In this document: positions 153-21,969 of the stretch, piece by piece
Position numbering within the stretch: position 1 is the stretch's first letter
Layout: each line of letters opens with the position of its first letter
Source of the DNA: an uncultured Deferribacteres bacterium
Lineage (GTDB): Bacteria > Zhuqueibacterota > Zhuqueibacteria > Zhuqueibacterales > Geothermadaptataceae
Reading direction: 5' to 3'
Assembly: GCA_964014485.1 (NCBI GenBank)
Contig: CAXHAT010000136.1
Coordinates: forward strand, 1-22,206
Length of the DNA stretch: 22,206 nucleotides
Program-made: the position numbers and the translations under genes
Notes under the pieces: generated by a model
Seen by the model: only the letters and a program-made list of their open reading frames with translations
Database searches by the model: none
Told to the model about the DNA's origin: nothing

Positions 153-200
153 CCAATCTCCCACTCACCACATCACCCTCTCTCCGACTCACCCAATCTC
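153..200. repeat. Degenerate 8-bp tandem repeat (6 units) overlapping the STAND gene stop codon
   Basis: ccaatctc ccactcac cacatcac cctctctc cgactcac ccaatctc, with the first and last units identical. Confidence 0.6.
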
Positions 201-3486: not shown

Positions 3487-4062
3487 CTAACGAGCGCGTA
3501 CTTCGAGCAGTTCATAAATCCGGAACTTGTCCGGGAAGCCTTTAATCTCAATCTCAGTGAGGGACTCGGCGACCAAGGCTTGCGGCGCTTTTTGCAATGT
3601 TTGTCCGGAAATTAAAATCTGCCCGCCGACAGTGAGTGATTCGATGCGCGAGGCGACGCGCATTTCCTTGCCTATCACGCCAAACTTTGCCAATCGAGAA
3701 GCGCCGATATTGCCCGCCACAACTTCCCCAGTGTGAACGCCGATTCCCATGGCAATTTCCGGCAGGCCTTGCGCATGGCTTTCCTGATTGATGTGCGGCA
3801 TTTTGCTTTGCATGGCCAAAGCGCACGCCGCCGCGCGTTCGGCATGGTCTTCCTGAGCTTGCGGCGCGCCAAAGATAGCAAGAATCGCGTCGCCAATGAA
3901 TTCAATGAGCGTGCCGTCGAAGCTTGCGATAACGGCGGTCATTTCGTCGAAATAGCGATTGAGAACTTGGATGGTTTTCTGAGGCGAGACGTGTTCAAAA
4001 ATCGAGGTGAAGCCGCGCAGGTCGGTCATAAGAATCGTCACTTCGCGGCGTTCGCCCGACAT
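3487..4062 (-). CDS. Stand-alone class III adenylate/guanylate cyclase catalytic domain (guanylate-cyclase-like specificity residues)
   Basis: Motifs TILMTDLRGFT, IEFIGDAILAIFG, MGIGVHTGEVVAGNIG and ASRIESLTVGGQILIS. The ORF track starts at 4113, but that ATG lies inside an 8-bp tandem repeat, so ATG 4062 (MSGERREVT) is preferred. The start remains uncertain. Confidence 0.88.
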   Translation of the reverse strand: MSGERREVTILMTDLRGFTSIFEHVSPQKTIQVLNRYFDEMTAVIASFDGTLIEFIGDAILAIFGAPQAQEDHAERAAACALAMQSKMPHINQESHAQGLPEIAMGIGVHTGEVVAGNIGASRLAKFGVIGKEMRVASRIESLTVGGQILISGQTLQKAPQALVAESLTEIEIKGFPDKFRIYELLEVRAR

Positions 4063-4096
4063 GATCGCGCTGTTTCGAATTTCCGACGCAGCGTTT

Positions 4097-4136
4097 TGGA
4101 ATTTTGGAGTCATGGAATATTGGAATTGTGGTGTCA
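4097..4136. repeat. 8-bp tandem repeat TGGARTNN (5 units)
   Basis: tggaattt tggagtca tggaatat tggaattg tggtgtca. Confidence 0.7.
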
Positions 4137-7100: not shown

Positions 7101-7534
7101 TCCGTGGCGGCATGTATGCCAATAACCGCTTTGCCGCCTTTGACGAAGCTCATCAAGCTTTCGCGATGCGCCCAGTCTTCAAAGGCCAACTCCGTTGTGT
7201 TTGCGAACAAGACGCCATCGAATTGACCGAGATTTTCTGGCTTAAACGCCGTCATATCGTCGCTGACGGTAACGGAAAAAGCGCCTGTCGCATCGCCCAT
7301 TTCTTCAAACGCTTTTGCAGCATAGGGAATCGAGCTATGACGAAAGCCCTCGGTGCGCGTAAATACTAAAATCTTGCGCTCTTGCACTGGCTTGGCGGCG
7401 CGGAGCCCTTGCATCGCTTCAGATATTTTTGCAGCGTCTTCACCGGGAATTTGTGCGAGTCCCGAAGTTGCCAGCAGGCCTGCAAATAGTGTTGATAAGA
7501 AAATATTTTTCATTTTAAAGGCGCGGTTGAACAT
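4187..7534 (-). CDS. Secreted multidomain protein: ThuA-like (class I GATase-like fold) domain + HEAT repeats + C-terminal beta-sandwich (SDDG motif, PA14-like)
   Basis: 1115 aa with a signal peptide (MKNIFLSTLFAGLLATSGLAQ) and GGAG RBS 7 nt upstream of ATG 7534. ThuA-type motifs are KILVFTRTEGFRHSSI, IGIHAA, DEIY and GKGRVFYSSFGH. Many HEAT-like units follow (e.g. VRSAAFAALGSLGD, LKTSAIRALMQW), then LELGSDDGVKAWLN...LKAGDNILLLK. Confidence 0.85.
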   Translation of the reverse strand: MFNRAFKMKNIFLSTLFAGLLATSGLAQIPGEDAAKISEAMQGLRAAKPVQERKILVFTRTEGFRHSSIPYAAKAFEEMGDATGAFSVTVSDDMTAFKPENLGQFDGVLFANTTELAFEDWAHRESLMSFVKGGKAVIGIHAATDNFYNWPEAASIMGGTFDGHPWNAGGTWAIKIDDPDHPVTRAFAGQNFNISDEIYRIRQRALRQNARVLLSLDMTDEGNLSANGVRFTDKDLPISWVRNFGKGRVFYSSFGHNHAIYWNPKILQHYLDGIQFALGDLESDVTPLPFDVAGALNFSELDELLAKTTGYNFGDSREHLVVLADFLRFASLSETTRAKVESRLVQALEASGTLAGKQYLCEQISLISSQASIPALAKMLDDSSTFEMARFALERISHPKAADALRNALGKTSGAHKVGLIAALGQIRDRKAVGALQKLINDSDENIVAAVISSLGDIADSKSVSALNKARESAEGARRELASDAMLRAAERLASAKNTADARWIYQKLYTKDESSAVRFAALNGLLKLGDARGFQLLISALKSGDSDLQTSSITLVRDIPASQSISEIIAAFTGFDENAQIQLLGAVASRTGDQETKDLVVSAAGSESDRVRSAAFAALGSLGDASDVEQLAKAAAVRGPSQAAARDALCKVAGESGDAAILSLVESSEAGVQVELIRAIDERRIPGAAPTLLTTAKSDDRRVRLESAKALKNAAATDDLQALVELLISAQSPNERGELEKTVAAVATQNENGGPQTQIILDGLDQAGSKDAKGALLQVLGRIGDDAGLPALREALGGDDETLKTSAIRALMQWPNDSPKNDLLRIAEDSNNQLHQTLALRGFVILLGKSDDAPDERIGGYKKAMTLAGSENEKKTVLSGLAEQKNVAALSMAAGYLDSTALRDEAEIAVVKIAGFTSASAPEETKNVLQRVTAETKNTDRKTNADRIVAFIERFEDFITAWHVAGPYAQEETDLFEHAFAPESGGEADWQIMPASTQQNAPWMAELDRVIGGDNRVAYLRTNVISESEQKVKLELGSDDGVKAWLNDELVHANNVARGVTPGDDVVEIALKAGDNILLLKIVQGGGGWGACARIRNLDGGKAPGVKAALVTEN

Positions 7535-7766: not shown

Positions 7767-9461
7767 TCACTTCATCAATATCAGTTTGCGTTGCGCCGTG
7801 AAATGTTGACCGGCTTTGATCTTGTAGAAATACAGTCCGCCGGCAACATGCTTTCCTGTATCATCACGTGCGTCCCAAGCGACTTTGTGCGCGCCTGTTC
7901 CGAAACGTCGGGACGGAATCAGCGTGCGCACCAATTGGCCGACGGTATTGTAAATGCTCAGTGTCACCATGCTTGCTTCGGCCAGCTCAAACTGAATCGT
8001 GGTGTTTGGATTAAACGGATTTGGGTAATTCTGCCAGAGAATGAATCGCTTCGGCGGCGCCTCGGGGTCTTCAACATTGACGACAATATCATCGATCCAG
8101 CCGCCGGCAAAGCCCGCCCGAATAAGCCCTTTTTGAATGATCGAGTCTTTTTTCATCACCTCCCACACCCAGCCGCTGCGATAATTTTCAATCATCATTA
8201 AAATCGGCCCCTGGTCGATGCCGATATAGTCGGTGTCAAACCAGTTAACTGAATCGTTGTAGGCGTCACGGAAGCCGTAGGTGCTGTAGAGTTTGGAACC
8301 GTATTTTTCCTTCAAATTGCGCAGCATGGGAATGACGATTTCCGGGGCGTACGCAATGGAGCCGCCCGCCGCCGTCGGTGCAATCGTGCCGTCGTCGACG
8401 ATTCTGTTGCCGCTGGCGCCGCGCGCGCGATAGCCGTTAAAGCCAAAATTGCGCGGGCCGTCGCAGGCGGTCAAGCCCCATTCCGATTCGCTATAATTTG
8501 GCCAGTCTTCCGGGTTGGCGGCGCAGTAGGCGCGATTGGCGTAGGTGGCGCGACGTGCGTTTTCAAAATAGTCGTACTTTTCACCGAACAAATCGAGTTC
8601 GTCATTGTGCAAACCGCGAAAATCGATCCAGGCGTGCGGATAATGGTGGCCGAACAACGGCGCGAATGTGACGAATGCGATCGGAAAATGCGCCGTCGTT
8701 TCATAGCGATAACGCGAGGTCCAAAACTGCCAGGCGCTCGTCGGCACCGGATTCGTCGTTCCGCCCAAAGCGAGAATATAGAGCAGCATGGCTTCGTTGT
8801 AACCGGCGTATTCAAAATTTATGAATCCTGATTCCGGATTCCAGCCGCCAGAGATTCCGCCGGTATTGGGGTTGCGCATAAAGCGCCAGTCGACGCGGTC
8901 GAGAATCACCGTCGCACTGTCCCGAATCGCAGTTTCGAGATCGTTTTCCGCGTCGTCGAAATAGTTGCGCACGAAAATCACGCCCAGCATCATGAGCGCG
9001 GTGTCGATGCTGCTCAGTTCGCTCGTCCAGGCGCGTTCGAGTGTGTTGGCGTTGAGAAAATGATAATACCACCCGCGATAGCCAACCGTGCCTGTCGATT
9101 CCTTCCCCATTTTGCCGAGCAGCAACGCTCGCAAAGTCTTATCAACTCGCTCAGCCGCCTGCGCTCGAGAGACGTAGCCCAGTTCAGCGCCTATGCCGTA
9201 CGCCGTTAGCCCGAAGCCCACGGAAGCGATTGAGATGTGAGAATTTTGCGTCGAAAAGTCAGTCGAGCGATCCGGCGACAAACCGGTGGCGCTATGCGCT
9301 TTTTCCCAGAACCAATTGAATGTATCGTTCGAGAGTTGATCGAGAAAGAGCGAATCTTCGACGCTCATTTCGTATGCCGGCGCCGACCAGTAGGGTTGGT
9401 ATTCCTGGGCGAATGTCGCGGTGGTAAACGCCAGCGCTGCAGAGACGAATAGAATTTTCAT
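7767..9461 (-). CDS. Secreted GH144-like ('glucoamylase family') beta-1,2-glucanase with C-terminal FlgD-Ig/T9SS type-A-like sorting domain
   Basis: Signal peptide MKILFVSAALAFTTATFA from ATG 9461 (preferred over TTG 9485). GH144-like motifs are SIASVGFGL, ELSSIDTA, GYNEA, PLFGHHY, WGLTACDG, GTIAPTAA and YIGIDQGP. The tail reads QNYPNPFNPNTTI...IYNTVGQLVRTL...WDARDD...GLYFYKI...KLILMK. Confidence 0.88.
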   Translation of the reverse strand: MKILFVSAALAFTTATFAQEYQPYWSAPAYEMSVEDSLFLDQLSNDTFNWFWEKAHSATGLSPDRSTDFSTQNSHISIASVGFGLTAYGIGAELGYVSRAQAAERVDKTLRALLLGKMGKESTGTVGYRGWYYHFLNANTLERAWTSELSSIDTALMMLGVIFVRNYFDDAENDLETAIRDSATVILDRVDWRFMRNPNTGGISGGWNPESGFINFEYAGYNEAMLLYILALGGTTNPVPTSAWQFWTSRYRYETTAHFPIAFVTFAPLFGHHYPHAWIDFRGLHNDELDLFGEKYDYFENARRATYANRAYCAANPEDWPNYSESEWGLTACDGPRNFGFNGYRARGASGNRIVDDGTIAPTAAGGSIAYAPEIVIPMLRNLKEKYGSKLYSTYGFRDAYNDSVNWFDTDYIGIDQGPILMMIENYRSGWVWEVMKKDSIIQKGLIRAGFAGGWIDDIVVNVEDPEAPPKRFILWQNYPNPFNPNTTIQFELAEASMVTLSIYNTVGQLVRTLIPSRRFGTGAHKVAWDARDDTGKHVAGGLYFYKIKAGQHFTAQRKLILMK

Positions 9462-9483
9462 TTTCTGTTCTCTTTGGAATTTC

Positions 9484-9631
9484 AAATGACAAGCATCGAT
9501 TCACAGATAAGTTCCAATTCTCAATCTGCAATGACCAAATCACTCGTTGTTCTTGAACCAGCCTTCGTTTGAGAATTGACTAATTCGGTATTGTGATTTA
9601 TTTGTTATTTGGAATTCGTTTTTTGGGATTT
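9484..9631. repeat. Two inverted arms of degenerate ~7-bp periodic repeats (AAWTNNC-like) between the GH144 genes
   Basis: Left arm aaatgac aagcatc gattcac agataag...aattctc aatctgc aatgacc. The reverse complement of the right arm reads aaatccc aaaaaac gaattcc aaataac aaataaa...aattctc aaac. The right arm overlaps the last codons (KSQKTNSK*) of the upstream GH144. Confidence 0.45.
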
Positions 9632-11017
9632 CACTTCTCTGAAATCTAACACATCCAACCCTCGCTGAATCAGAGGATCACGCATAGAATATTCCCACAC
9701 CATGCCGGTACGAAAATTTTCGATCATAATCACGATTGGCCCTTGATCGATGCCAATGTAATCCGGATCGATCCAATCAACCGTCGGGTTGAAAGCGTCG
9801 TAGAAGCCGTGCGGCCCCCAAAGTCCTTTTTCGCCGTAACGTTCGAGCATTTTCTGCAAGGTCGGAATAACAATTTCCGGCGCGAAGACGATGGAGCCTG
9901 CCGCCGCCGTTGGTGCAATCGTGCCGTCGTCGCGCTGGATGCGGTTGGGGCCGCTGGTTCCGCGCGCGGTGTAAGTGTAGAACTTTCGGTCGTCGGTATT
10001 GTAGCTCTGTCCGGGGCCGTCACAGGCGGTCAAGCCCCAGGTGAGGGAATCGTAACCGACCCATCCCATCGGATTGTCAACCGCGTACTGGCGCTGGGTA
10101 TAAGCCGCACGGCGCGAATTTTCGAAATAGTCGATCCCCTTCTCGCGCATGTAAGCGTCGCCGAGACCGCGAAAATCGACGAACATGTGAGAATATTGGT
10201 GCCCGAAAAGCGGCGGGAAAGTCACGTGCGCCAAACCGGGGTAAGGCTCTTCCCAGCGATAAAACTTCAGCCAGTTTTGATAGGCCTGTTGCGCATCATC
10301 GTAACCGCATCCGGCGGCGAAAACATAAAGATAAAGCGCTTCGTTGTAGCCCGTCCAACCGTGGGAGAGGAAGCCGCGTTCCGGTCGCCAGCCCATGGTC
10401 ACGGTTCCGGCGGCGCGCCCCGCGTCTTCCGGCAGCGTCGTCCAATTCCAGTTGATTCGCTCAGTTAGTTCAGCGACGGTTGTGCGGATTTCCTGCTCCG
10501 GCGCATCGTCACGGTTGTAATAACTCATCGCAAAGCGCAGCCCGGCAAAAAGCAACGCCGTGTCGATGGTTGAAAGTTCACAACCCCAATAGCGCTGGCC
10601 GGTTTTCATGTGCAGAAAATGATAATAGAACCCCTGATGGCCGGTGGCGAGCGAGTCCGTGCTTTGCTCGGAATTTTTGAGAAAACGGAGCAATGCGAGC
10701 GTGTTTTCTCGCGCTTGTTCTCGCGAAATCCACCCTCGCTCCGCGCCAATCCCCCACGCGACGACGCCAAAGCCGGTCGCGGCTGTGCTAGATGGCGAAG
10801 TTGCTTTCGTGCGATCTTTCACCAACCCGTTTTCGGGGTTCATTTCATCGACAAAATAGCGAAACGAGCGGTGTTGCAATGAATCGAGAAAGGCCAATTC
10901 TTCCGCCGTTGCACCGTACTGTTCGGCCAGCGTTTTTGCTTTTTCTTGGCCGTCTATTCCCGAACATGCGAACATGGTCAGCGCATAAACGGCAATTGTG
11001 ATGCGTGCGATTTTCAT
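9605..11017 (-). CDS. GH144-like ('glucoamylase family') beta-1,2-glucanase, probable lipoprotein
   Basis: ATG 11017 gives MKIARITIAVYALTMFA-C, a lipoprotein-like signal (the ORF-track start at 11083 lies in a repeat). Motifs are ELSTIDTA, GYNEA, PPLFGHQYS, WGLTACDG, GTIAPTAA and YIGIDQGP. It is a paralogue of 7767-9461 without the C-terminal tail. Confidence 0.88.
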   Translation of the reverse strand: MKIARITIAVYALTMFACSGIDGQEKAKTLAEQYGATAEELAFLDSLQHRSFRYFVDEMNPENGLVKDRTKATSPSSTAATGFGVVAWGIGAERGWISREQARENTLALLRFLKNSEQSTDSLATGHQGFYYHFLHMKTGQRYWGCELSTIDTALLFAGLRFAMSYYNRDDAPEQEIRTTVAELTERINWNWTTLPEDAGRAAGTVTMGWRPERGFLSHGWTGYNEALYLYVFAAGCGYDDAQQAYQNWLKFYRWEEPYPGLAHVTFPPLFGHQYSHMFVDFRGLGDAYMREKGIDYFENSRRAAYTQRQYAVDNPMGWVGYDSLTWGLTACDGPGQSYNTDDRKFYTYTARGTSGPNRIQRDDGTIAPTAAAGSIVFAPEIVIPTLQKMLERYGEKGLWGPHGFYDAFNPTVDWIDPDYIGIDQGPIVIMIENFRTGMVWEYSMRDPLIQRGLDVLDFREVKSQKTNSK

Positions 11018-11044
11018 CGTTTCAACTCGGTTATAAAGTTTTTG

Positions 11045-11250
11045 ACCCGGACAAGCCGCAGCCGATTTGCGGCACTTATCCAACCTTGTGACTGAACGCA
11101 GAGTCGCCGAGATCGGGGAGCTTCGCAGAGTTTCTTTTTGAAAAAACAGAGAGTCCCGTTTATCGGTTTTCGTGCTTTTGGTCTGGTCGACATTGAACCC
11201 GCAATGAAATTCTCTCTGCGATTCTCAGCGTACTTTCCGTCTCTGCGTTT
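11045..11250 (+). repeat. ~200-bp ACGCAGAG-family repeat element, copy A
   Basis: From 11095, aacgcagagtcgccgagatcggggagcttcgcagagt closely matches the reverse complement of 14355-14391 (aacgcagagacgcaaagatcggagagtttcgcagagt). There is an internal inverted arm at 11210-11250 (ctctgcg...gtctctgcgttt). acccggacaagccg (11045) matches the reverse complement of cggcttgtcgggt (14428-14440). Confidence 0.75.
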
Positions 11251-11397: not shown

Positions 11398-11576
11398 TCC
11401 GCTCTGAAAAATACCGTTGGCGAATTCCTGATGACGCGAAGTTCTCATTAGCCCCGCGCTTCAGCGCAGGGACATGAGAGCGTGTCTTCTCCTCTTCCCC
11501 GCGCTGAAGCGCGGGGCTAATGATAGCGATACGATATAGTGAAAGCGAATTCGCCAACCGTATCCTGAAGAGCGGA
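11398..11576. mobile_element. MITE-like element with ~30-bp terminal inverted repeats (…GTTGGCGAATTC) carrying a TAGCCCCGCGCTTCAGCGC REP doublet
   Basis: 11398-11427 versus the reverse complement of 11547-11576 match at 25/30. Inner inverted repeat cattagccccgcgcttcagcgcaggg (~11446-11471) / ccccgcgctgaagcgcggggctaatg (11497-11522). The same terminal repeats occur at 18973-19262. No clear target-site duplication was seen. Confidence 0.6.
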
Positions 11577-11640
11577 GCCAATGAGAATCAAAAGTTGCTC
11601 GCAGGCTTTGATCCCCACGCTAAACAATGCGTGCGTAAGA

Positions 11641-14043
11641 TCAGTTATGATTTCCTTCAAGTACGACCTTCACCTGAAATTCTCCTTCGCCGCGCGGCGT
11701 TAACAAGGGGCCGCTGATTTTCTCTCCGTCAACCGTGATCGAGTGAACGCCGCCGGTGTAGCCGTTTGGATTTTCGATGCTGATGTGATAAACCCCGCCG
11801 CGAAAGCGCCGCGTCACCTTCACGCGCGGCCAGTGCGCTGGAATGCAGGGATCTATGAGCAAGCCTTCCGGCGTGGCGCGAACGCCGCAAACAGCTTCAT
11901 GCGCGACCGTGAGCAGCCAGCCCGCGGAACCGGTGTACCAGGTCCAGCCTGCGCGGCCGTAATGCTCGGAATCCTTGCCGTCGATATTTCCGGGCAGCAC
12001 GAACGGCTCGGCGGCGTAACGGTCGGCGCCTTGCTCTCCCTGCAAAATCGGATTGAGCTTCTGAAACAAGCGCATCGCATCTTCGGCGCGGCCCAGCTTG
12101 GCAAAGGCCAGGGGCGCCCATGTTGCCGCATGCGTATAAACGCCGCCGTTTTCTCGCAACGACGGCGCGTAGCGCGTGATGTAGCCGATTCCCGCGTCCG
12201 GCTTGCTGAAGCCCGGCTGGAAAAGCATGGCGCCATTGTCGCCTTCCAAATGCTCAAGAACCGCTTCGGCGATTTGAGCGCGCCGTTCGCCCTCAGCCAC
12301 GCCAGAAATAATGGCCCAGGTTTGCGAATTGAGGTAAATCTTGCATTCTTCCTGGGAAGGATCGCCGATGGGCGCACCGTCGTCTTTGGTGGCGCCGAGA
12401 TACCATTGGCCGTTCCAGCCGTGAGTGTTGAGCGCGTCCTTCAGGGCAGCGGCGCGTTTGCGGTATTCCGCCGCCAACGCGGGCTTAGGAATAGGCGAGT
12501 ATTCGCTCAAAACTCGCACCCATTGCCTCAGAATTTCATACAAAAACATGCCGAGCCAAATACTTTCGCCGCGCCACTCCAGGCCGACAGCGCTGAATCC
12601 GTCGCACCAGTCGCCGGCGCCGATGAGCGGCAGGCCGCGCTCGCTAAAACGCCCAAGCGCCGTTTCAATGGCGCGCGTGCAATGTACTTGCAGGAAGTCC
12701 TCGCCTTCGTCGTAAAAAGGGATGCGCTCCTGAAGCGCGGAAAAATCGCCCGTCTCATTAAAGTACTGCGTCAACATGTACGGCAGCCAAAGCAGATCGT
12801 CCGTCATCTCCGTGGGCAGACCTTGATCGGTGAGCGGATGCCACCAATGCAGCACCTTGCCGCTGGAAAATTGATGGCGTGCGTTTAGCTTAACGTGATC
12901 CAGCATCCGATCCGGCTCCAAAAAGAGCCAAACCTGGCTGGTCTGCAATTGGTCGCGAAAACCGTACGCGCCGGACTGCTGGTAGTAGCCCGTCCTTCCC
13001 CACAAATGCCCGGAAACCGCCTGATATTTCAGCCAGACATTATTGAGCAAATCAAAGGATTTCTCCGGCGTTTCGAGCACGACTCGACTGGTCAACTCGC
13101 ACCAAAAATCTTTGACGCGCTGCAATTCATTTCGCGCGGCGCTTTCATCGCTAAAGCGTTCAACGAGATGTGCCGCGCTCTCGTCAGGTTTGTTTTTATC
13201 GATTTGGCCGAGAAGGAAAACCACGGTTTTCTCCTCGCCGGGCGCGAGCGTGACGTTCGTCGCCAACGAAGCGGCGGGGTCTTCAAATCGGCCGCTTTTA
13301 CCGCTAAACGCGCCTTCAGCAATTCCTTTTGGCCGGTGAAAACCGCCGTGACGACCAATGAGCGCGTCCTTGCTTGCGTCCCAGCCCGCGAGTTCCGCAT
13401 TGACGGCGTGAAAGCCGAGATACGGCCATTCCGTGTTCCAATGTCCGCGATCCGTCGGGACTTCCCAAAGCAGTTTTTCCGCGGTAATGGCGCGCAGTTT
13501 TGGGTCAAATTTTGTTTCGATAAAAAGTTTATGAAATTCACGATGCACGTCCGGGGCGGCGCCGAGATTCCATTCAAGATAGGAGCTGAGTTGCAATCGG
13601 CGGGCGGCGGCGCCTTTGTTTCGCAAGGTGCAAAGCCAGATTTCCACGGGATCATCTTTCGCGGCAAACAAAGTCCATTCGCTTTCGATATCGCCGTATT
13701 TTTGCACGAAAGTCGTGTAGCCGAGACCGTGATGGACGCGGTATTCATCAAACGCCGCTTGCATAGGTTGGAACGCCAGTGAACGCAGCACTCCGGAATC
13801 GAGATCGCGCAGATAGAGCCACTTGCCCCAATCGTCACGGATCAGGTCTTGATTCCAGCGCGTCAGGCGGTTGAGCGACGCGTGTGTGCGCCAGCTAAAT
13901 CCGCCGCCGGCCTGGCTGACAACGAGGCCAAAATCGCCGTTTGAAATAACATTCACCCAGGGACGCGGCGTATCGGGCCGGGTGACAACATACTCGAAAC
14001 CGTCGTCGGAAAAACAGCCGTATTTACTCTTGAAGTCAGGCAC
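11641..14043 (-). CDS. GH94 glycoside phosphorylase (Cgs/NdvB-like motifs; probable beta-1,2-oligoglucan phosphorylase), cytoplasmic
   Basis: 800 aa, GTG start, no signal peptide. Motifs are TPRPWVNVISN, RLTRW, QQSGAYGFRDQLQ, DDLLWL, GAGDWCDG, GESIWLG, RENGGVYTHAA and WYTGSAGW. Confidence 0.9.
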   Translation of the reverse strand: MPDFKSKYGCFSDDGFEYVVTRPDTPRPWVNVISNGDFGLVVSQAGGGFSWRTHASLNRLTRWNQDLIRDDWGKWLYLRDLDSGVLRSLAFQPMQAAFDEYRVHHGLGYTTFVQKYGDIESEWTLFAAKDDPVEIWLCTLRNKGAAARRLQLSSYLEWNLGAAPDVHREFHKLFIETKFDPKLRAITAEKLLWEVPTDRGHWNTEWPYLGFHAVNAELAGWDASKDALIGRHGGFHRPKGIAEGAFSGKSGRFEDPAASLATNVTLAPGEEKTVVFLLGQIDKNKPDESAAHLVERFSDESAARNELQRVKDFWCELTSRVVLETPEKSFDLLNNVWLKYQAVSGHLWGRTGYYQQSGAYGFRDQLQTSQVWLFLEPDRMLDHVKLNARHQFSSGKVLHWWHPLTDQGLPTEMTDDLLWLPYMLTQYFNETGDFSALQERIPFYDEGEDFLQVHCTRAIETALGRFSERGLPLIGAGDWCDGFSAVGLEWRGESIWLGMFLYEILRQWVRVLSEYSPIPKPALAAEYRKRAAALKDALNTHGWNGQWYLGATKDDGAPIGDPSQEECKIYLNSQTWAIISGVAEGERRAQIAEAVLEHLEGDNGAMLFQPGFSKPDAGIGYITRYAPSLRENGGVYTHAATWAPLAFAKLGRAEDAMRLFQKLNPILQGEQGADRYAAEPFVLPGNIDGKDSEHYGRAGWTWYTGSAGWLLTVAHEAVCGVRATPEGLLIDPCIPAHWPRVKVTRRFRGGVYHISIENPNGYTGGVHSITVDGEKISGPLLTPRGEGEFQVKVVLEGNHN

Positions 14044-14244
14044 GATTTGAACTCTGTTTGATTTGTTGTTCTTGTGTAATTATCAGTGCAAACGTGAAAA
14101 CTTATGGTCAGAGAAAATACGTTTTTTGGCAGCCTCCGCGATTAAAATCTAACAGGAGCGCACAGCCCAGAATAGCTTGTGTTTCGTTCCGAGAGCAATG
14201 TCATTGAGCTCAGCGTATTTCTTGTTTTTTGGGCAAGACCTTTC

Positions 14245-14440
14245 AAACGCAGAGACGCTGAGAAGTGCAGAGAAAATTGAATTGTGAGTTCATTTTGAAC
14301 AGTTCGCGGCGATGAAAATTCGAAAATAGAGTTTCAGGCATTTGTGTTAAAAAAACTCTGCGAAACTCTCCGATCTTTGCGTCTCTGCGTTAAGTCACGA
14401 GATTAAATGACTGTTCCTGATTGGTTCCGGCTTGTCGGGT
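14245..14440 (-). repeat. ~200-bp ACGCAGAG-family repeat element, copy B (inverted relative to 11045-11250)
   Basis: aaacgcagagacgctgagaagtgcagag (14245) and actctgcgaaactctccgatctttgcgtctctgcgtt (14355-14391). Its reverse complement aligns to copy A at both ends. Confidence 0.75.
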
Positions 14441-14468
14441 TTGGGCTTACCCAGAAGCGGCGTATTTC

Positions 14469-14558
14469 TGTCGCCCTTTCAGGGTTTTCCAATGCGGTCG
14501 TGTGCTGACATTTACTAGGGCGTTGCCCTTCGCTATTACTTTCCGCCCCTTCAGGGCC
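14469..14558. repeat. Single arm of the GCCCT...AGGGC REP-like family
   Basis: tgtcgccctttcagggtt...ctagggcgttgcccttcgctattac...gccccttcagggc matches 19142-19229 (tgtcgcccttacagggct...ccagggcttcgcccttcgctgttac...accccgttgggg) in the same orientation. Confidence 0.7.
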
Positions 14559-14615: not shown

Positions 14616-15632
14616 TCAAAATCGTACGCCGAGGGTAAATCTCTGCGAATTGTCCAACCGTCCGTGATCCGACCAGGCGTAGTCGATGCGCAGAGACAAA
14701 TCGCCGTAAGAATAATCTAACCCGGCGCCCAGCGTCAACCCGACCTCGGAATCTTGCAGAAAAAGATTTTGATAGCCGCCGCGCAAAAACAGAAAATCGG
14801 CGACGCTCCATTCCGCGCCAAAACTCACGCTCTCGGTGTTGTCGTTCGGGTGAAAAGCGTCGACCGCGATGTTGACGCGATTGTTCTCGCCAAGCCGGAG
14901 CGGCCAGTACATCCCGACGCGAAACATCACAGGCAGGGAGTATTGCAGCGTATGAACCTCGCCCGGCAAACTGCTGTTGTCGCCGTAGCGATCCGGATCG
15001 AGATCGTACTGAATGCGCAAGTCTCGCCCTGAGTAGCCCGATTGCAATCCGAAATTCGAAACGCTGGCGGCGATGCGCATGCCGGAACCGGACAAGGTGT
15101 AGATCGTCCCGACGTTCAAACCGCCGGTCGCCAACGAGCTGTGCCAGATCGTTTCTTGCACATAATTGAGCTGCACGCCCAGGGAAAATCGATCCGTGAG
15201 TTGCCTGCCGAAACCAATTCCAAGAGCGAGATCGGCAACCGTGTAACGCTCGCCGGTGCCCAGCGGCTGTCCCACAGTGCGTACGGCAATCTCGCCGGAG
15301 TTGAGCGCCGTCGCGCTCAGGTAAAAATTGCCTGCATCGCCCGCCTGAATGAGCGCTCCGACGTAATCATAACTAATGCCCGCCAGCCACTCGCTGTGCG
15401 TCAATTGGAGACCGTAGCCGGTTTGCATACCAATCGCGCCCGGATTGTAATAGGCCGAGACGATTTCTTCAGAGGTTGCAACCCCGGCATTGCCCATGGC
15501 GGCGGCGCGAGCGCTTGGCTCGATGAGCAAAAACTGCCCAATGGTCGTGCCGGTTTTGCTTTGGCCGAAAGCAAGCCCGCTGGCGAACAGGAGCAGAATC
15601 GGACAAAGCGTTTTTATCGTCATTCTTGCCAT
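14616..15632 (-). CDS. PorV/PorQ-family (UPF0164-like) outer-membrane beta-barrel
   Basis: AGGAG RBS 7 nt before ATG 15632 and a signal peptide. It has the family-typical N-terminus GTTIGQFLLIEPSARAAAMGNA...YYNPG, alternating beta-strands, and a C-terminal barrel signature RFTLGVRF. Confidence 0.82.
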   Translation of the reverse strand: MARMTIKTLCPILLLFASGLAFGQSKTGTTIGQFLLIEPSARAAAMGNAGVATSEEIVSAYYNPGAIGMQTGYGLQLTHSEWLAGISYDYVGALIQAGDAGNFYLSATALNSGEIAVRTVGQPLGTGERYTVADLALGIGFGRQLTDRFSLGVQLNYVQETIWHSSLATGGLNVGTIYTLSGSGMRIAASVSNFGLQSGYSGRDLRIQYDLDPDRYGDNSSLPGEVHTLQYSLPVMFRVGMYWPLRLGENNRVNIAVDAFHPNDNTESVSFGAEWSVADFLFLRGGYQNLFLQDSEVGLTLGAGLDYSYGDLSLRIDYAWSDHGRLDNSQRFTLGVRF

Positions 15633-15643
15633 CGTCAAACTCC

Positions 15644-18600
15644 TTATTTGATAATCGCGAACTTGCCGATGTACGAGCCAAGCTCGCCGGCGTCAACATG
15701 GTAAATATAAAGCCCGGGCGCGACGTCGAGATTGTCTTTGGTGCGCAGGTTCCACGGGACGATTCCGTCGTGAGAACCGTCGTGCCGGAGGGTTTGCACA
15801 AGCTCGCCGCGCGCGGTAAAAATGCGGATCGAGCAGTTTGCCGGCAGCGCTCGAAATTCAAGCCGCCGCTCGCCGCGTCCGGAAACCGCGAAACGCTCCG
15901 CTTCAAAACTCGCCGAGCCGACGTAGGGATTCGGCACGACGTAGGGTTCCGTGAATTCCTCCGCTTCTTTTTGCGCGTCGATAAATTCCGCCGAAGAGGA
16001 AAATGAAAAAACGTCCTGTTCGCCCAAGGGCACGGCGGTGACGAGTTCATAAACATCGCCCTCGCCCGGCGGCGTGACGCTCTCCAAATCCACGCCGGCG
16101 GTATCGATTTCAAACCGCCAGGTGACTTGCGGACGCGTCGGGTTTTCCGGGTGGTAGGTAATCACGTCGATGAATTCTTCCGGGTAGGGCTTGCTCAAGG
16201 TGCCGTTTTGGTCGATGTCGCGAAAACGGAATTTCAGGCGCAAATCGCCGTCTTCCGTGTGCGCCAAGACGCGGAAATTCGCCGGGCGGGCGGGCAGACC
16301 AATCGCCGGAAGCGAAGTGTCCTGCGGCGAATCGCTGAAGGTAATCGTGATCGGATCGGGGAATCCGGGGCGGCGAAAATTGATCGGCAGCAAGTATTGG
16401 TAAGAAGCCAGCAAGCGGGCGTTCGTGCCGCTCGAAGCGGTGAAGCCGCTCAGCGTTTCGTCAACCGTCACCGTCTTGGGCGTGGAAACAATCGGCATCA
16501 GCCCGGCGGCGACCTGCCCGATTCCGCGCCCGTCCAAATCATAGCCGTTGGTGAACATAACCTCGCCAGTGGTTGCGTCGATCATGTCGTAAAACGCCGC
16601 CCGCAAACTGTCGGGGGAAGTGGTTTTGAACCGGATTTCGAAGGTGTGGTTGTCGGGCACGATGCTCGAATTGACGACGCGCACTTCAACGTCGCCGACG
16701 CCGGGTCCTTCAACGTGCGTCGCGGCGGAAACTTCGGCGGGCACAAATCCCGGCGCCTTCGGATTCGGACGGACGGCGACGACGTTTTTCGGCAAAATCG
16801 TACCGCCGCGCGGCGTGCGGGAAACGGCAATGGCGTTTTCCGAGGGATAGAATTCCAAAGAATCCGAGCCGTGATCATAACTCGTCACGGCGTAGTAATA
16901 AAGCTGCCCGTTCGTGACGGTACTGTCGGTGAAAGTGTGCTGAATCCCGTTGTCCTCGCCGAGATAATAAGCAACGCCTTCAACGGTGATGTTCGAAAAT
17001 CCTTTCCTGCCGTTTTCAAGGTCAAATTGCGCAATTGGCTTGCCGTTGCCGATCGGGCCGGTGCCGCGCCCGGTGGTGATCACGCGCGGGTCGCGAAATT
17101 CAGGATCGGTGGCGCGGTAGATGCGATAGCCTTCAAAGTCGTTGAGCAGAGTGACGGGGTCGGAGCCGCGTTCCGCAATGTCGTCCCAGGAAAGCCGCAC
17201 GTAGCCGTCGCCGGTCTCTGCGGTCAGGGTCGGCAGATCGGGCGGGACGGCGAATTGGTAATTGGCGTTGTAAATACGCTGAACGACTTTGACCGTATTT
17301 TCAAGCTCGTTCAGATCGGCGCCATAGGCAAGGGCAAGGCTGAAACGCTCGGTTTTTCCGGCGGCCAAAGTAAACGGGCCGGAAGCGAATAAAAAACCGA
17401 TGTTGTAGTTGAGCGCCTCGGGCAAATCGAAGCGCTGCGATGGAATCGGGTTGGTGAACTGGTCATAAAGCCGCTGCGGCCAACTGTTGCCGTTATCGAA
17501 AAAAACGATGTTGTCAACTTCAGTGTTCGGATTGCCTTTTCCCGCGCGGATGCGATTCAATTTGAAGCCGGTGAGGCCGATTTGGTCGGACTCGTGCAAA
17601 TCCGTGCGGTCAAAATTCGTTTCGCCGTCCGTGGGAACGCCGTCTTCTTCTCCGGCGTCGCCAGTCCCAAAAACGCCGTCGGCGCCGGTGTCATGCAACT
17701 GCGGAACCCAATCCAAATCTTCGTCGCCGGTCCACCATTCGCCAAATCGAAAAGCAGGCCTGCCTTCCAGCGGGCCGTATTCGCGCTCAAAGCTGGGCAA
17801 ATTATAGTTTGCCATCACATAAGCGCGGATCGCTTCCTGTCCGACGATCAATTCTCCGGGGCCGCCGTCGCGCAATTCATTCAGGACGCCGTCGTCGTCG
17901 TTGTCGAGAACATCGAGAGAATTGCCGGGCGTTTCGAGATAAGCGTAGCCGAGGTAGCCGGTCGTTGCGCAATTGCTGCTCAAATCGACGCCGTGGCCGA
18001 ATTTGTCCCAGGTGTAAACCAGGTTCAAACCGGAGGAATTGTCGTAAAAAGCGTTGTCATCGTCAGACTCGGCGATGCCGTCGCAGGAGAGCGCCGAACC
18101 GCCCACGCCAGAGTCAAAATAGAGGCCGAAAACGATATTGTCATTGTAATCGGTCGTGCCCTCGTTCGTGATGTCGTAATGCCAGAAAATCACATTGCTG
18201 GCCTGCGGATTGGCCCATTGAAAACCGCGAACTTCGATGCGCAGACCGAGACCGCGCCGGGTGGAATCGCGGCTGTCGGGGTAGAAATCCCATGCGTCGT
18301 AAAAATCGTCGTCCATCACGGTGTAGCTTTCCTGGTCGGCGTTGGCGCGTTTGCCAAAATAGCCGTTCCAGCTTCCGCCCCAGCCCGGATCATCCAGATC
18401 GTTTTCCTTGTCCGGCCAGTAATCCGGCCACGTGCGCGGATCGTAGCTCACCGCCGGGGAGCGGCCCTGGTTTATTGCCGGATCGGCTTGAAAGAATCCG
18501 GGGCGCGGTTCAAAGCGCATGATTCGATTGCGGCGGGGGCTGCGCTGCTGGCGTTCGCGATAGCCGGTTTCCATGATGTACGCCGGATTGCCGTTGCCTT

Positions 18601-18901
18601 GAATGACGCGCGCCAGCACGAACGGCGTGACGCCGTCGCTATAGTTGAGACCGCTGCCTTTCGGCACCTCAACGGAATGAAAAACGCTGAGATCAACCGT
18701 CAGCGGGTTTGGCGGGTAGCCGCCGACCATGCCGTAATTGTGAAATTGCGTACGGATGTTCGCCGCGTCATGAAAACCGATGCGTTCCGCGTCCACCCGG
18801 CCCCGCATTTCCGGCGGCACGACCGGCTGCAACTGCGCCTGCGCTTGCGCCGCGACGCAGAAAACAAGTAGCAAAAGTATGCGTGATTTCAAGCGCTGCA
18901 T
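15644..18901 (-). CDS. Large secreted/surface protein of unknown function with acidic Ca-binding-like loops, an FN3-like domain and a T9SS-like C-terminal domain
   Basis: 1085 aa with AGGAG RBS and signal peptide. It contains DNDDDG and DTGADGVFGTGDAGEEDG acidic motifs, FN3-like VRLSWDD...FEGYRIYR...YYYAVTSYD, and the tail VVPNPY...IRIFTARGELVQTL...WNLRTKDNLDVAPGLYIYHV...GKFAIIK. Confidence 0.8.
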   Translation of the reverse strand: MQRLKSRILLLLVFCVAAQAQAQLQPVVPPEMRGRVDAERIGFHDAANIRTQFHNYGMVGGYPPNPLTVDLSVFHSVEVPKGSGLNYSDGVTPFVLARVIQGNGNPAYIMETGYRERQQRSPRRNRIMRFEPRPGFFQADPAINQGRSPAVSYDPRTWPDYWPDKENDLDDPGWGGSWNGYFGKRANADQESYTVMDDDFYDAWDFYPDSRDSTRRGLGLRIEVRGFQWANPQASNVIFWHYDITNEGTTDYNDNIVFGLYFDSGVGGSALSCDGIAESDDDNAFYDNSSGLNLVYTWDKFGHGVDLSSNCATTGYLGYAYLETPGNSLDVLDNDDDGVLNELRDGGPGELIVGQEAIRAYVMANYNLPSFEREYGPLEGRPAFRFGEWWTGDEDLDWVPQLHDTGADGVFGTGDAGEEDGVPTDGETNFDRTDLHESDQIGLTGFKLNRIRAGKGNPNTEVDNIVFFDNGNSWPQRLYDQFTNPIPSQRFDLPEALNYNIGFLFASGPFTLAAGKTERFSLALAYGADLNELENTVKVVQRIYNANYQFAVPPDLPTLTAETGDGYVRLSWDDIAERGSDPVTLLNDFEGYRIYRATDPEFRDPRVITTGRGTGPIGNGKPIAQFDLENGRKGFSNITVEGVAYYLGEDNGIQHTFTDSTVTNGQLYYYAVTSYDHGSDSLEFYPSENAIAVSRTPRGGTILPKNVVAVRPNPKAPGFVPAEVSAATHVEGPGVGDVEVRVVNSSIVPDNHTFEIRFKTTSPDSLRAAFYDMIDATTGEVMFTNGYDLDGRGIGQVAAGLMPIVSTPKTVTVDETLSGFTASSGTNARLLASYQYLLPINFRRPGFPDPITITFSDSPQDTSLPAIGLPARPANFRVLAHTEDGDLRLKFRFRDIDQNGTLSKPYPEEFIDVITYHPENPTRPQVTWRFEIDTAGVDLESVTPPGEGDVYELVTAVPLGEQDVFSFSSSAEFIDAQKEAEEFTEPYVVPNPYVGSASFEAERFAVSGRGERRLEFRALPANCSIRIFTARGELVQTLRHDGSHDGIVPWNLRTKDNLDVAPGLYIYHVDAGELGSYIGKFAIIK

Positions 18902-18972
18902 GTTGAAACACTCCTGGTAAATTCAGTTGTTTCGTTCTTTATGAAACAGAAAAATTTCGCTGTCATTAGCCG

Positions 18973-19262
18973 CGCGCTTCAGGATGCTGTTGGCGAATTC
19001 ACTTTCGAGAGTCGATTTTGACAATTCACTCAGCCCCAACGGGGCGAAACGGAATAGCGAAGGGCAACGCCCTGGAAAAGCGAGACCCAAGACTATTTCT
19101 TAGCCCTGAAAGGGCGTAACAGTTTGGCCTGCTTGACTTTATGTCGCCCTTACAGGGCTTGATAATGATGACAATGTTCAATGTTTCCAGGGCTTCGCCC
19201 TTCGCTGTTACATTTGACCCCGTTGGGGTCTTTTGAATTCGCCAACAGTATCCTTCAGCGCG
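18973..19262. mobile_element. MITE-like element with the same terminal inverted repeats as 11398-11576, carrying a GCCCT...AGGGC REP doublet (~290-nt nested palindrome)
   Basis: 18973-19000 cgcgcttcaggatgctgttggcgaattc versus the reverse complement of 19235-19262 (cgcgctgaaggatactgttggcgaattc). Inner inverted pairs lie at 19034-19044/19218-19228, 19055-19078/19184-19207 and 19102-19116/19145-19159. Confidence 0.65.
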
Positions 19263-19302
19263 TGGAAGATAGGCGCGTTCGCTTTCTTCCCTCCTGATAA
19301 AT

Positions 19303-21969
19303 TTAAAGCCCTGAGTTCAACGAAAAACCCAACTCAATCCGGCGCGGCGGGAAGTAGCGGTTCGGATTGGCCAGCGTGACTTGATCCGCGACCGGCGTGA
19401 GCGAGTAGTCCGGGCTGCCGGTGTTCGTAAAAACAAACCCGTTGACAAAACGCGTATCCAGCACGTTGAAAGCGCGGGCGAACAGGCTCATGTTCAAACC
19501 GGCGATTTCAAAGAACTTCTCCGCACGCAAATCGATCAGCAGGGACGCCGATTTGTTGCTTGAATTCCGCTCCAAGCCAGCCCCGAAGCCGCTGCCAATG
19601 GATGGCGTGTAAGGCTGACCGCCGTTGTACTTGATCACTGCGCTGATCGAAAAATCATCGTGTTCCTGCAAAGCAAACGTTGCGTTGAGCGTGTTGCGCT
19701 GATCCCAGTTGAGCGGAATTTGCTCCGGGCGCGGATCTTCTCCGGCGGCGGCGCGGGTGGCGGTTTCTCGCGGATCGCTGGAATTGCCGAGAGCGCGTTG
19801 CCAGGTGTAGTCGATCGTCGAACTAAACGGGCCGATCCGTCGCTGGTCAAAAGCCACCGTAAATCCGATGACATTGCCGAAATCGACGTTCGTCAGCCTC
19901 GCATATTCCGCCGCCGCGTAAGTCGACACAAACTCCACGCCGAGCAAATCGCGAATATCTTTGTAGAAAATGCTGAGGTCAAAACCGAGAAAGTCCGTGA
20001 CCGCGTGCTTGTAGCCAAATTCGTACTGCGTGGTGCGCTCCGGCTCGATGTCGGGATTTCCGAGCACGCCATAGCTGATCCCGCCCGCCTGCAATTCGTC
20101 GAGCACGTCATAATTTGCGTTGGAAAAAATAACGCCGAGCGCGGGCGTTTGGTAAAAATGGCCGTAAGCAAAAAAGACGGCCGCCCGGTCGGTGATGGGA
20201 TGAGAAATTCCCAAACGAGGCGCCAGTGATGATTTGGCAGTGGTTTCCTGTGGATGCGACTCCGGAGCGCCGGCAATGGCGTTGGCCGGATTCTGCAAAT
20301 CACTGGGAATCGTCGAACGCGCATCGAAATATTCGAATCGCACGCCCGCGCGAACGACCAAATCCTTGAATTCAATCTGATCCTGCGCATAGGCCGCCAG
20401 AGAAATCGGCTCATAATTTGATGACGGCGGGTAATCCGGCGGATCGTTTTCGTGGCGCGTCACGCCCGTGCCGCCAGTGCTGACGATGTAGCCGTCGGGC
20501 GTGCCGAAAGTGATGTCCGACAATTGGTATTCCACGCCGAATTTGGCCAAGTGCGAACGCGTCACTTGGCTGGTAACAGCGCCTTTCAGCACCAACGCGT
20601 CCGTGGTTTGAATAAACCGCCCGAGACTCACCCCTTGAACAACGGCGCCAATTTCGTAGTTCGGATCGCCAATCGGCGGTCCGGCTTCGTCATAGCGCGG
20701 GTCGTTAAAATCATCATAAACATAGTCTTGGTAATCAAAATAATTTTGGCGCAAACTCAAATTGTAGAATGTCTTGCTCGACAGCGTGTGCGTCACGTCA
20801 AGGCCGTGGACGATAGAAAAAGTCTTCTGCGTCGGCGCGCCGTCGGGGTTGAAGCGAAATCCAAAATCGTAACGTTTTGCGTCCACATCATTGAAAATCG
20901 CCTGATAGCTCAACTCAACGTTGTTCAGAGATTTATTGGTCAGCTTGGCGAGCCCCGACCATTCGCGATTGAAGCTCAAGGGCATGGTTTCGTCGTCCCC
21001 GCTCGGCGTGAAAATTTTTTGCTCGAAATCGGCGCGGTCAGTCGGGAGAAAGCGCCGCGTTGCGTAAACGTAGCCGTCATCGACAAATCGGCGGCCGTTG
21101 AGAATGAAGCTTGTTTTCGGCAAAAGAGCCGGGCCGCTCAGACTGAACTGGTAATTCTGTCGCGACAACGGTTTGAATTCGTCATCGACGGGGCGTTTGG
21201 CGTTGGAAAAAACAAAATCGCTGATAAACGCCTCCGCGTTCCACTGAAAGCGATCCGTGCCGCTCTTGAGCACGGCATTGACAACGCCGCTCATCGCCTG
21301 ACCGTACTCTGCGTCGAAAGTGCCGCTGATAACCTGAACTTCACGCAACAGCGAACGGTCGATTCGCAGGGTCGAACTGTTGTCGTAAGAATTGTTCACG
21401 GTCACGCCATTGATCTGGAACTGCACCTCGCCCAGCCTGCCGCCGCGAAAATGGCCGTCCACCACGCCCGCCTGCAAGTTGACGATGTCCTGCAATTCCT
21501 GCACGGGCAAAGCTTCGATTTCTTCTTCCGTGACGGTCGCTAGCGAGCTGGTCAGCATCGTTTCAACGACGGGGGATTCCGCGAAAATCGTCACGGCGGC
21601 GCCTTCGATAACGCTTTCTTCCATCGTCACGTTCTGCGTCGTGGTCTGGTCAGTTTTGATGAGAACGTTTTCGACGACAATCGTGGAGTAGCCGAGAAAA
21701 GTATAGCGCACGCTATAAACGCCGGGGGGAATGTTGATGATGTTGTAATATCCCTGCGCGTCGGAAGCGGAGCCGCGCTCCGTGCCCACGATGACGATGT
21801 TGGCGCCGGGGAGCGGCTCGTTGTTCGCGTCCAAAACCCGCCCGGAAAGCTTCCCGGTCGTTCCGGCGAACGTCTGCGCCGCCAATGTCGCGATTAGAAA
21901 AAACGCGAGCAGGAAAGATTTTGGAGATGTGATGGAATCAGATCGTAACCTTCTAATATTGCTGAACAT
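19303..21969 (-). CDS. TonB-dependent receptor with N-terminal carboxypeptidase-regulatory-like domain
   Basis: 888 aa with GGAGG RBS and a signal peptide ending AQTFA. It shows GKLSGRVLD...PLPGANIVIVGT (N-terminal extension), plug motifs HFRGGR and SGTFDAEYGQAMSGVVN, and barrel motifs APRLGISHP, GNPDIEPERTTQYEFG and C-terminal PRRIELGFSL. Confidence 0.92.
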   Translation of the reverse strand: MFSNIRRLRSDSITSPKSFLLAFFLIATLAAQTFAGTTGKLSGRVLDANNEPLPGANIVIVGTERGSASDAQGYYNIINIPPGVYSVRYTFLGYSTIVVENVLIKTDQTTTQNVTMEESVIEGAAVTIFAESPVVETMLTSSLATVTEEEIEALPVQELQDIVNLQAGVVDGHFRGGRLGEVQFQINGVTVNNSYDNSSTLRIDRSLLREVQVISGTFDAEYGQAMSGVVNAVLKSGTDRFQWNAEAFISDFVFSNAKRPVDDEFKPLSRQNYQFSLSGPALLPKTSFILNGRRFVDDGYVYATRRFLPTDRADFEQKIFTPSGDDETMPLSFNREWSGLAKLTNKSLNNVELSYQAIFNDVDAKRYDFGFRFNPDGAPTQKTFSIVHGLDVTHTLSSKTFYNLSLRQNYFDYQDYVYDDFNDPRYDEAGPPIGDPNYEIGAVVQGVSLGRFIQTTDALVLKGAVTSQVTRSHLAKFGVEYQLSDITFGTPDGYIVSTGGTGVTRHENDPPDYPPSSNYEPISLAAYAQDQIEFKDLVVRAGVRFEYFDARSTIPSDLQNPANAIAGAPESHPQETTAKSSLAPRLGISHPITDRAAVFFAYGHFYQTPALGVIFSNANYDVLDELQAGGISYGVLGNPDIEPERTTQYEFGYKHAVTDFLGFDLSIFYKDIRDLLGVEFVSTYAAAEYARLTNVDFGNVIGFTVAFDQRRIGPFSSTIDYTWQRALGNSSDPRETATRAAAGEDPRPEQIPLNWDQRNTLNATFALQEHDDFSISAVIKYNGGQPYTPSIGSGFGAGLERNSSNKSASLLIDLRAEKFFEIAGLNMSLFARAFNVLDTRFVNGFVFTNTGSPDYSLTPVADQVTLANPNRYFPPRRIELGFSLNSGL

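Follow-up and report, generated by a model that had tools for sequence, protein, structure and literature searches.

A conserved triad of TonB-dependent receptor, T9SS-tailed secreted protein and PorV/PorQ-family barrel as a candidate SusD-independent glycan-capture module in Zhuqueibacterota

The window analysed here is a stretch of 22,206 nt that makes up the entire contig C136 of an uncultured bacterium of the phylum Zhuqueibacterota (GenBank assembly GCA_964014485.1, contig CAXHAT010000136.1; genome 97% complete, 8.4 Mb). Its minus strand carries, in this order, a TonB-dependent receptor of 888 aa (19303-21969), a protein of 1085 aa with signal peptide and without named family that is called X in the following (15644-18901; open reading frame, Pfam and homologue searches), a barrel protein of the PorV/PorQ family with 338 aa from its ATG (14616-15632), a phosphorylase-like protein of glycoside hydrolase family 94 (GH94; 11641-14043), two Glycoamylase (PF10091) proteins which we take to be GH144-type (9605-11083 and 7767-9485), and a ThuA-HEAT gene. 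The second Glycoamylase protein ends in an ordinary type IX secretion system (T9SS) tail, type A. Since the window is the whole contig, genes located 5' of the receptor are not visible here. An earlier note on this DNA, made from the letters alone, had placed the triad of receptor, X and barrel upstream of glycan enzymes, and GH94 and the two Glycoamylase genes do come next. The barrel ATG lies exactly 11 bp past the X stop codon, as had been stated, with GGAG in front. The note had X directly following the receptor. The two genes are indeed neighbours on the minus strand; however, a gap of 401 bp intervenes. It holds a dispersed element of ~296 bp with terminal inverted repeats (18970-19265), resembling a miniature inverted-repeat transposable element, with copies elsewhere in the genome. 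The distance from the receptor stop to a fixed motif in X has a median of 172 nt in relatives (147 loci) compared to 531 nt here. The element is likely a late insertion.

The arrangement of the three genes is conserved. At least 2520 relatives of X were found among 7999 candidates scored, with 890 representatives (clusters at 50% identity) at E<1e-30. Out of 568 confirmed genome loci and 445 metagenome loci we analysed the best 80 each, and in addition a divergent set from the same phylum (120 of 150 matches listed, out of 362 found). A locus was regarded as testable if its sequence extended far enough on either side of X. Among testable loci, the order receptor-X-barrel is present in 69 of 69 from genomes, in 58 of 59 from metagenomes and in 95 of 105 from the divergent set, the latter spread over 11 X subfamilies; in 6 of the 10 exceptions a barrel is found elsewhere in the locus. 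The triad arrangement is far beyond chance, and the synteny suspected earlier from the single locus holds. Within this phylum, 81 genomes were sampled, the own genome included, and 73 of them carry X. The closest homologues are labelled Calditrichaeota/KSB1 by their sources, and host labels comprise KSB1, Caldithrix, Ignavibacteria, Rhodothermales, Eisenbacteria, Krumholzibacteria, Gemmatimonadota, Latescibacterota and Fibrobacter.

The neighbouring enzymes vary with the X subfamily, in line with the earlier expectation that carbohydrate-active enzyme sets covary with it. GH94 and GH144-type genes accompany subfamilies 0 and 4 (GH94 also occurs in 3 other loci), GH13 and GH53 mostly subfamily 3, and sugar ABC genes subfamily 1; this association is only descriptive because related loci are not independent. 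All 41 wide loci of the close set have GH144-type genes, and 36 of these 41 have GH94. A GH144-type gene and a GH94 gene beside a transporter correspond to the gene content of a beta-1,2-glucan utilisation locus, and judged by these neighbours beta-1,2-glucan is the likely substrate in this subfamily. A gene for a protein resembling the peptidyl-prolyl isomerase (PPIase) SurA is found in 36 of the 120 phylum loci, mostly with X subfamilies 1 and 3 (e.g. L251:1499-3220; own genome C20:26069-27766), and may represent a dedicated folding helper.

X carries a signal peptide ending in AQA in front of Q and has no lipobox, which agrees with its earlier description as a secreted non-lipoprotein. A lipobox-like motif was detected in 5 of 120 X homologues. 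No Pfam family matches X at E<=0.05, a sequence search of the PDB returned antibody chains only (E>=0.015), and a search of the ESM Atlas with residues 25-555 led to unnamed clusters only. The structure of X was predicted with a mean predicted local distance difference test (pLDDT) score of 81. It consists of four parts. Residues ~30-550 (17252-18814) form a predicted beta-supersandwich with an Asp-rich insert, residues ~553-715 (16757-17245) an FN3-like domain that has an insertion and is itself kept across subfamilies, residues ~716-975 (15977-16756) a two-part beta-domain termed D4 (pLDDT 97.6), and residues ~976-1085 (15647-15976) a PorZ-like T9SS C-terminal domain.

Structure comparison of the supersandwich gave the N-terminal domains of GH15/GH94-type enzymes as best matches (Z 19.1, root-mean-square deviation (rmsd) 3.2, 263 aligned residues); mutarotases match as well. 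A loop with DxDxDG repeats is inserted at residues 326-445 and is likely calcium-binding. The model contains no helical ((alpha/alpha)6) catalytic barrel: the sandwich is followed by short helices only and then by FN3. The small part of D4 resembles FlgK/FlgL (Z 10.0, rmsd 2.1, 85 aligned). For its inserted beta-domain, confidently predicted at residues ~815-948 (16060-16460), no clear match was obtained in 48,161 PDB representatives; no carbohydrate-binding module (CBM) stood out in the fold search with D4, and Foldseek matches to lectins had E>=0.01. Six shorter X paralogues have a tail of X's class. Four of them weakly match the sandwich or FN3 parts, none matches D4. Sequence identity of the sandwich is 77/70% inside the subfamily vs 35/25% to other subfamilies. 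Of 47 polar or aromatic residues that are conserved in a subfamily-specific manner, 33 are located in the supersandwich. This pattern fits a role in specificity, be it for a sugar or for the cognate receptor.

The tail of X matches the tail of PorZ (5m11; Z 11.6, rmsd 2.0, 86 aligned, 29% identity). The model NF052228 also matches X in the tail only (E 7.6e-4). The type-A tail models TIGR04183 and PF18962 do not match X, while both match the neighbouring Glycoamylase tail. Neither the type-B tail models (CHU_C/TIGR04131) on X nor PF11751 on the barrel gave a match at E<=0.05, and the PF11751 genes of this genome are situated on other contigs. The earlier assignment of a T9SS C-terminal domain is retained: the VVPNPY...W...GLYIYHV...GKFAIIK end is present and the fold is PorZ-like, with a distinct class of sequence that no type-A or type-B model recognises. 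The analogy drawn in that note to type-B cargo with SprF fails, as the tail matches PorZ and the barrel belongs to the PorV/PorQ family instead of PorP/SprF. PorZ-PorQ is the better analogy.

The barrel clearly belongs to the PorV/PorQ family (NF033709, 184.9 bits, cut-off 90) and stays below the cut-offs of both the PorV (78.6/250) and the PorQ equivalog (74/220). Using a tail profile built from X's relatives, 12 of the 236 tail-bearing proteins in the own genome were assigned the X-type tail. A PorV-family gene is found at a distance of less than 2 kb for nine of them, compared to 17 of the 224 other tails. Covariation was evaluated by a mean-field approach on alignments pairing X with its barrel (244 pairs) or with its receptor (229 pairs), at an effective number of sequences (Meff) of ~170 and with nulls in which partners were swapped among near neighbours. 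In the X-barrel alignment 28 of the 100 top pairs fall in the X tail, with a null mean of 16.8 and a null maximum of 22, such that none of 30 nulls reaches 28. The four best pairs all involve the tail (I1066-L85, K1055-D296, F1028-R327 and S996-V228, barrel numbered from the TTG frame). Judged by sequence pattern, the covarying barrel residues presumably reside in outer loops; PorV binds tails with extracellular loops, according to the accessible part of PMC10994853. Moreover, a quick tree built from 64 rows, with at most 5 for each subfamily, separates the barrels that belong to long-X triads as a clade from the PorV-like barrel on C78 (SH-aLRT 98), and the subclades match most X subfamilies. 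Because covariation is concentrated in the tail and barrel clades follow X subfamilies, the barrel can be regarded as the likely cognate partner of the X tail, as had been suggested earlier. Taken by itself, the step in which the barrel anchors the X tail at the surface is highly probable.

The receptor comprises a CarboxypepD_reg N-extension, a plug and a TonB barrel (Pfam). The SusC/RagA model TIGR04056 assigns it 65.6 bits with a cut-off of 368.25, which places it outside the SusC family. No SusD family match was seen among the 9 window proteins scanned, no SusD/TPR match in X using Pfam and further profile models, and none in 280 related loci with the own genome's four SusD-like proteins as queries. 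The operon thus shows no SusD, as the earlier note had it, and the gene 5' of the receptor in nearly all subfamily loci encodes a tail-bearing cargo protein and not SusD. With the window receptor as query, 43 receptor-like open reading frames were found in the own genome, 14 of which form a high-scoring triad clade. Ten of the 14 have an X-type gene at most 3 genes downstream, 2 are located at contig ends, and one on C63 has neither X nor barrel. None of the other 29 is accompanied by X or barrel. The four SusD-like lipoproteins each lie behind a different receptor outside the triad clade.

The export machinery presupposed by the earlier note was recovered in part. The own genome encodes the SprA translocon, the sortase PorU (on C135) and a near-canonical PorV (C78, 248.6 with a cut-off of 250), and SprA was found in 49 of 50 host genomes (50 of the 80 hosts). 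What is missing is the motor PorL/M/N, which was not found using the GldL/M/N models. A candidate PorU at C78:21152-24400 was rejected as an M6-like cargo.

Taken together our data are best explained by X as a T9SS-exported, barrel-anchored, non-catalytic partner of the receptor that captures sugar in place of SusD, a reading to which we assign a probability of about 0.5. X would cross the inner membrane by Sec and then fold. It would pass the SprA translocon on its own barrel and keep its uncleaved, PorZ-like tail bound to this barrel, so that the anchoring would presumably be permanent. With its supersandwich turned towards the adjacent receptor, X would then help to capture beta-1,2-gluco-oligosaccharides. 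Cleavage of the putative substrate beta-1,2-glucan would fall to the secreted GH144-type enzyme, and GH94 would complete the breakdown inside the cell.

Several observations limit this reading or weigh against it. The top scores of X-receptor covariation, like those of receptor and barrel, are inside the null range; at the low Meff given, this speaks neither for nor against contact. A few high-scoring pairs within the subfamily (H729/A822 with S571/S852) had to be rejected because the receptor columns are nearly invariant. An excess of X-receptor pairs in FN3 (28 vs a null maximum of 27 in 12 nulls, with six regions tested) was considered too marginal. Proteins fusing receptor and X or X and barrel were absent from the 7999 candidates, which is a weak test. 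On C105 a receptor of the triad clade occurs with a barrel and without X, and on C24 an X-type gene has no adjoining receptor. SusD and X coexist in some genomes, including the own genome; SusD_RagB is present in 10 of the 50 host genomes. Among 61 genomes of another phylum (that of host G049), SusD matches number 0-5 (median 1) in the 29 that carry X, and all 11 with at least 8 SusD matches are without X, an exclusion that follows lineages and hence is not independent evidence. Finally, GldL, GldM and GldN models do not match in the own genome despite its completeness, and GldM and GldN were found in 0 of the 50 host genomes, although remote homologues may escape in both cases. A positive control exists for GldM only, which exceeds its cut-off in 14 of the 61 genomes; X is found in none of these 14, a pattern that again follows lineages. 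As the PorL/M/N motor was not found, the exit of cargo from SprA is left unexplained. SprA, PorU and ~236 cargo proteins without detectable PorL/M/N suggest a T9SS with another motor or none.

A further point against sugar capture by X is the gene just upstream of the receptor, which in 106 of 109 subfamily loci encodes a tail-bearing cargo protein. This protein contains one or two repeats of ~500 aa with weak CBM9-like matches (e.g. L007:3709-7146, L013:782-2671). Four of five scanned proteins show weak CBM9-like and type-A tail matches, the CBM9-like match exceeding the cut-off in one of five. The orthologue in the own genome lies on the short contig C366 (684-~4100, 68% identity), which is likely the piece past the end of the window contig. 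This CBM9-like cargo could be the real sugar binder. Hence X might instead be a barrel-anchored scaffold or assembly partner of the receptor, with the upstream cargo and the secreted hydrolase capturing the sugar. In agreement with this, X shows a mean conservation of 66% vs 57% for the receptor and 55% for the barrel and exceeds each of them in 108 of 109 loci, as expected for a protein with several interfaces; the PPIase/SurA-like neighbour also points in this direction. However, it is in the supersandwich that aromatic and charged residues with subfamily-specific conservation accumulate, most of the scanned cargo proteins match CBM9 only weakly, and the upstream cargo was counted in this subfamily only, whereas X is part of every triad. 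We consider a pure scaffold unlikely.

The supersandwich could also be catalytic itself, making X a surface enzyme that trims the polymer beside the receptor. The same fold constitutes the whole protein in aldose epimerases and overlaps lyase/fucanase chains (3mwx Z 13.3; 9k1g Z 13.3; 5xq3 Z 12.7), and E191, D198, D282, D299 and E323 are conserved in all subfamilies. Yet with Z 15-19 the fold is closest to domains at the N-terminus of GH15/GH94/GH65-type enzymes. These domains are non-catalytic, and X has no counterpart of the helical catalytic domain that follows them. Dedicated hydrolases are already encoded in the loci, and the same conserved residues are found beside GH144, GH13 or GH53 enzymes, which rather fits structural or calcium sites. 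An enzymatic role is improbable.

Least of all do we expect the barrel to be an export shuttle only, with X released or attached to lipopolysaccharide (LPS) and the receptor co-located merely for co-regulation: PorV does shuttle type-A cargo that is then released or LPS-linked (accessible text of PMC10994853), PorU is encoded in the own genome and X-receptor covariation is without signal, but the separate near-PorV barrel on C78 exists for the ~224 ordinary cargo proteins, X tails are a class of their own next to private barrels, and the receptor-X adjacency is near-invariant across phyla and subfamilies and stricter than that of the enzymes.

Among known systems, the triad with X as putative sugar-capturing partner is reminiscent of SusC/SusD of Bacteroidota. 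In both, the gene of a TonB-dependent transporter is strictly adjoined by that of a surface partner, among glycan enzymes that vary with the pair. In contrast to SusC/SusD, the triad receptor scores below the SusC cut-off, X is no lipoprotein, lacks a SusD/TPR match, has twice the size and bears a T9SS tail, and a third gene, the barrel, is included. The alternative lids described by Price et al. are lipoproteins, as far as the accessible part of that work goes (bioRxiv 10.1101/2023.03.17.533168). In the attachment complex of the Porphyromonas gingivalis T9SS, to which PorU-PorV belong as well, PorZ retains its tail and PorQ holds it (PMC10947112, accessible text). The X body differs from PorZ by consisting of supersandwich and FN3, the PorZ match being limited to the tail. 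Moreover the X-barrel pair exists in many paralogous copies beside receptors, and its barrel does not reach the equivalog cut-off of either PorV or PorQ. Type-B cargo with PorP/SprF shuttles, as described in the accessible part of PMC12618676, is similar in having one barrel gene directly downstream per cargo and pair-specific recognition. Tail class and barrel family are different in the triad, however, and the known type-B cargo proteins in that text are adhesins and do not serve as partners of transporters. The beta-1,2-glucan cluster of Ignavibacterium album combines GH144 genes and one GH94 gene with a TonB-dependent transporter that is proposed to take up beta-1,2-glucan; the accessible part of the report states that biochemical evidence for the transporter is lacking and discusses neither X nor a barrel (PMC8861115).

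A description of the triad was not found in the literature searched, which mostly did not cover subscription journals. The genome papers on Caldithrix and Melioribacter and an eLife superfamily paper do not mention it in their accessible portions, and SusCD and SprA are tabulated across phyla of the Fibrobacteres-Chlorobi-Bacteroidetes (FCB) group in the accessible text of PMC12611786. Although its members fall outside the SusC and SusD families, the triad likely works like SusCD and represents an undescribed variant of glycan-uptake loci. We tentatively extend this to FCB-related phyla outside Bacteroidia (KSB1/Zhuqueibacterota, Calditrichota, Ignavibacteria, Rhodothermia, Eisenbacteria, Krumholzibacteria and Gemmatimonadota), which might use a T9SS-exported, barrel-anchored lid instead of SusD, exported via a SprA that works in the absence of the known motor PorL/M/N. 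Glycan capture at the outer membrane would then have a second and perhaps older architecture, though we put somewhat less trust in it than in the reading of X itself. Since SusC/SusD pairs serve as the marker for finding polysaccharide utilisation loci, such loci in these phyla, which are abundant in sediment, sludge and hot springs, would be missed or called incomplete. X together with the barrel offers a marker with substrate-linked subfamilies. If true, there would be a direct tie between the T9SS and nutrient import, and PorV/PorQ barrels would act as private anchors besides being shuttles. It also raises the question how SprA works where PorL/M/N are not detected.

The own genome contains 33 PorV-family matches in total. 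PorV-family barrels also occur in frames of 730-1040 aa (C8, C10, C38, C128, C129, C143 and C152), several of which adjoin cargo of up to 5300 aa with tail variants of its own. The region C105:5583-22734 encodes a receptor, a barrel and an NHL lipoprotein, and further down a tail-bearing protein of 479 aa as well as two more PorV-family barrels.

A scan for promoters and terminators gave signals no stronger than in shuffled sequence, and a search for RNA runs listed none. Dispersed inverted-repeat elements with related copies on many contigs are located in the intergenic gaps of the operon, namely, besides the one between receptor and X, at 14227-14445, 14511-14557 and 11541-11584. The remaining genes are all on the minus strand. 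The ThuA-HEAT gene (4187-7534) encodes a secreted protein of 1115 aa that combines a ThuA-like domain with HEAT repeats and ends in a beta-domain. At 3487-4113 an adenylate/guanylate cyclase domain is encoded on its own. A NACHT/NB-ARC-like ATPase with TPR repeats (189-3011; weak Pfam matches) is possibly involved in defence or signalling.

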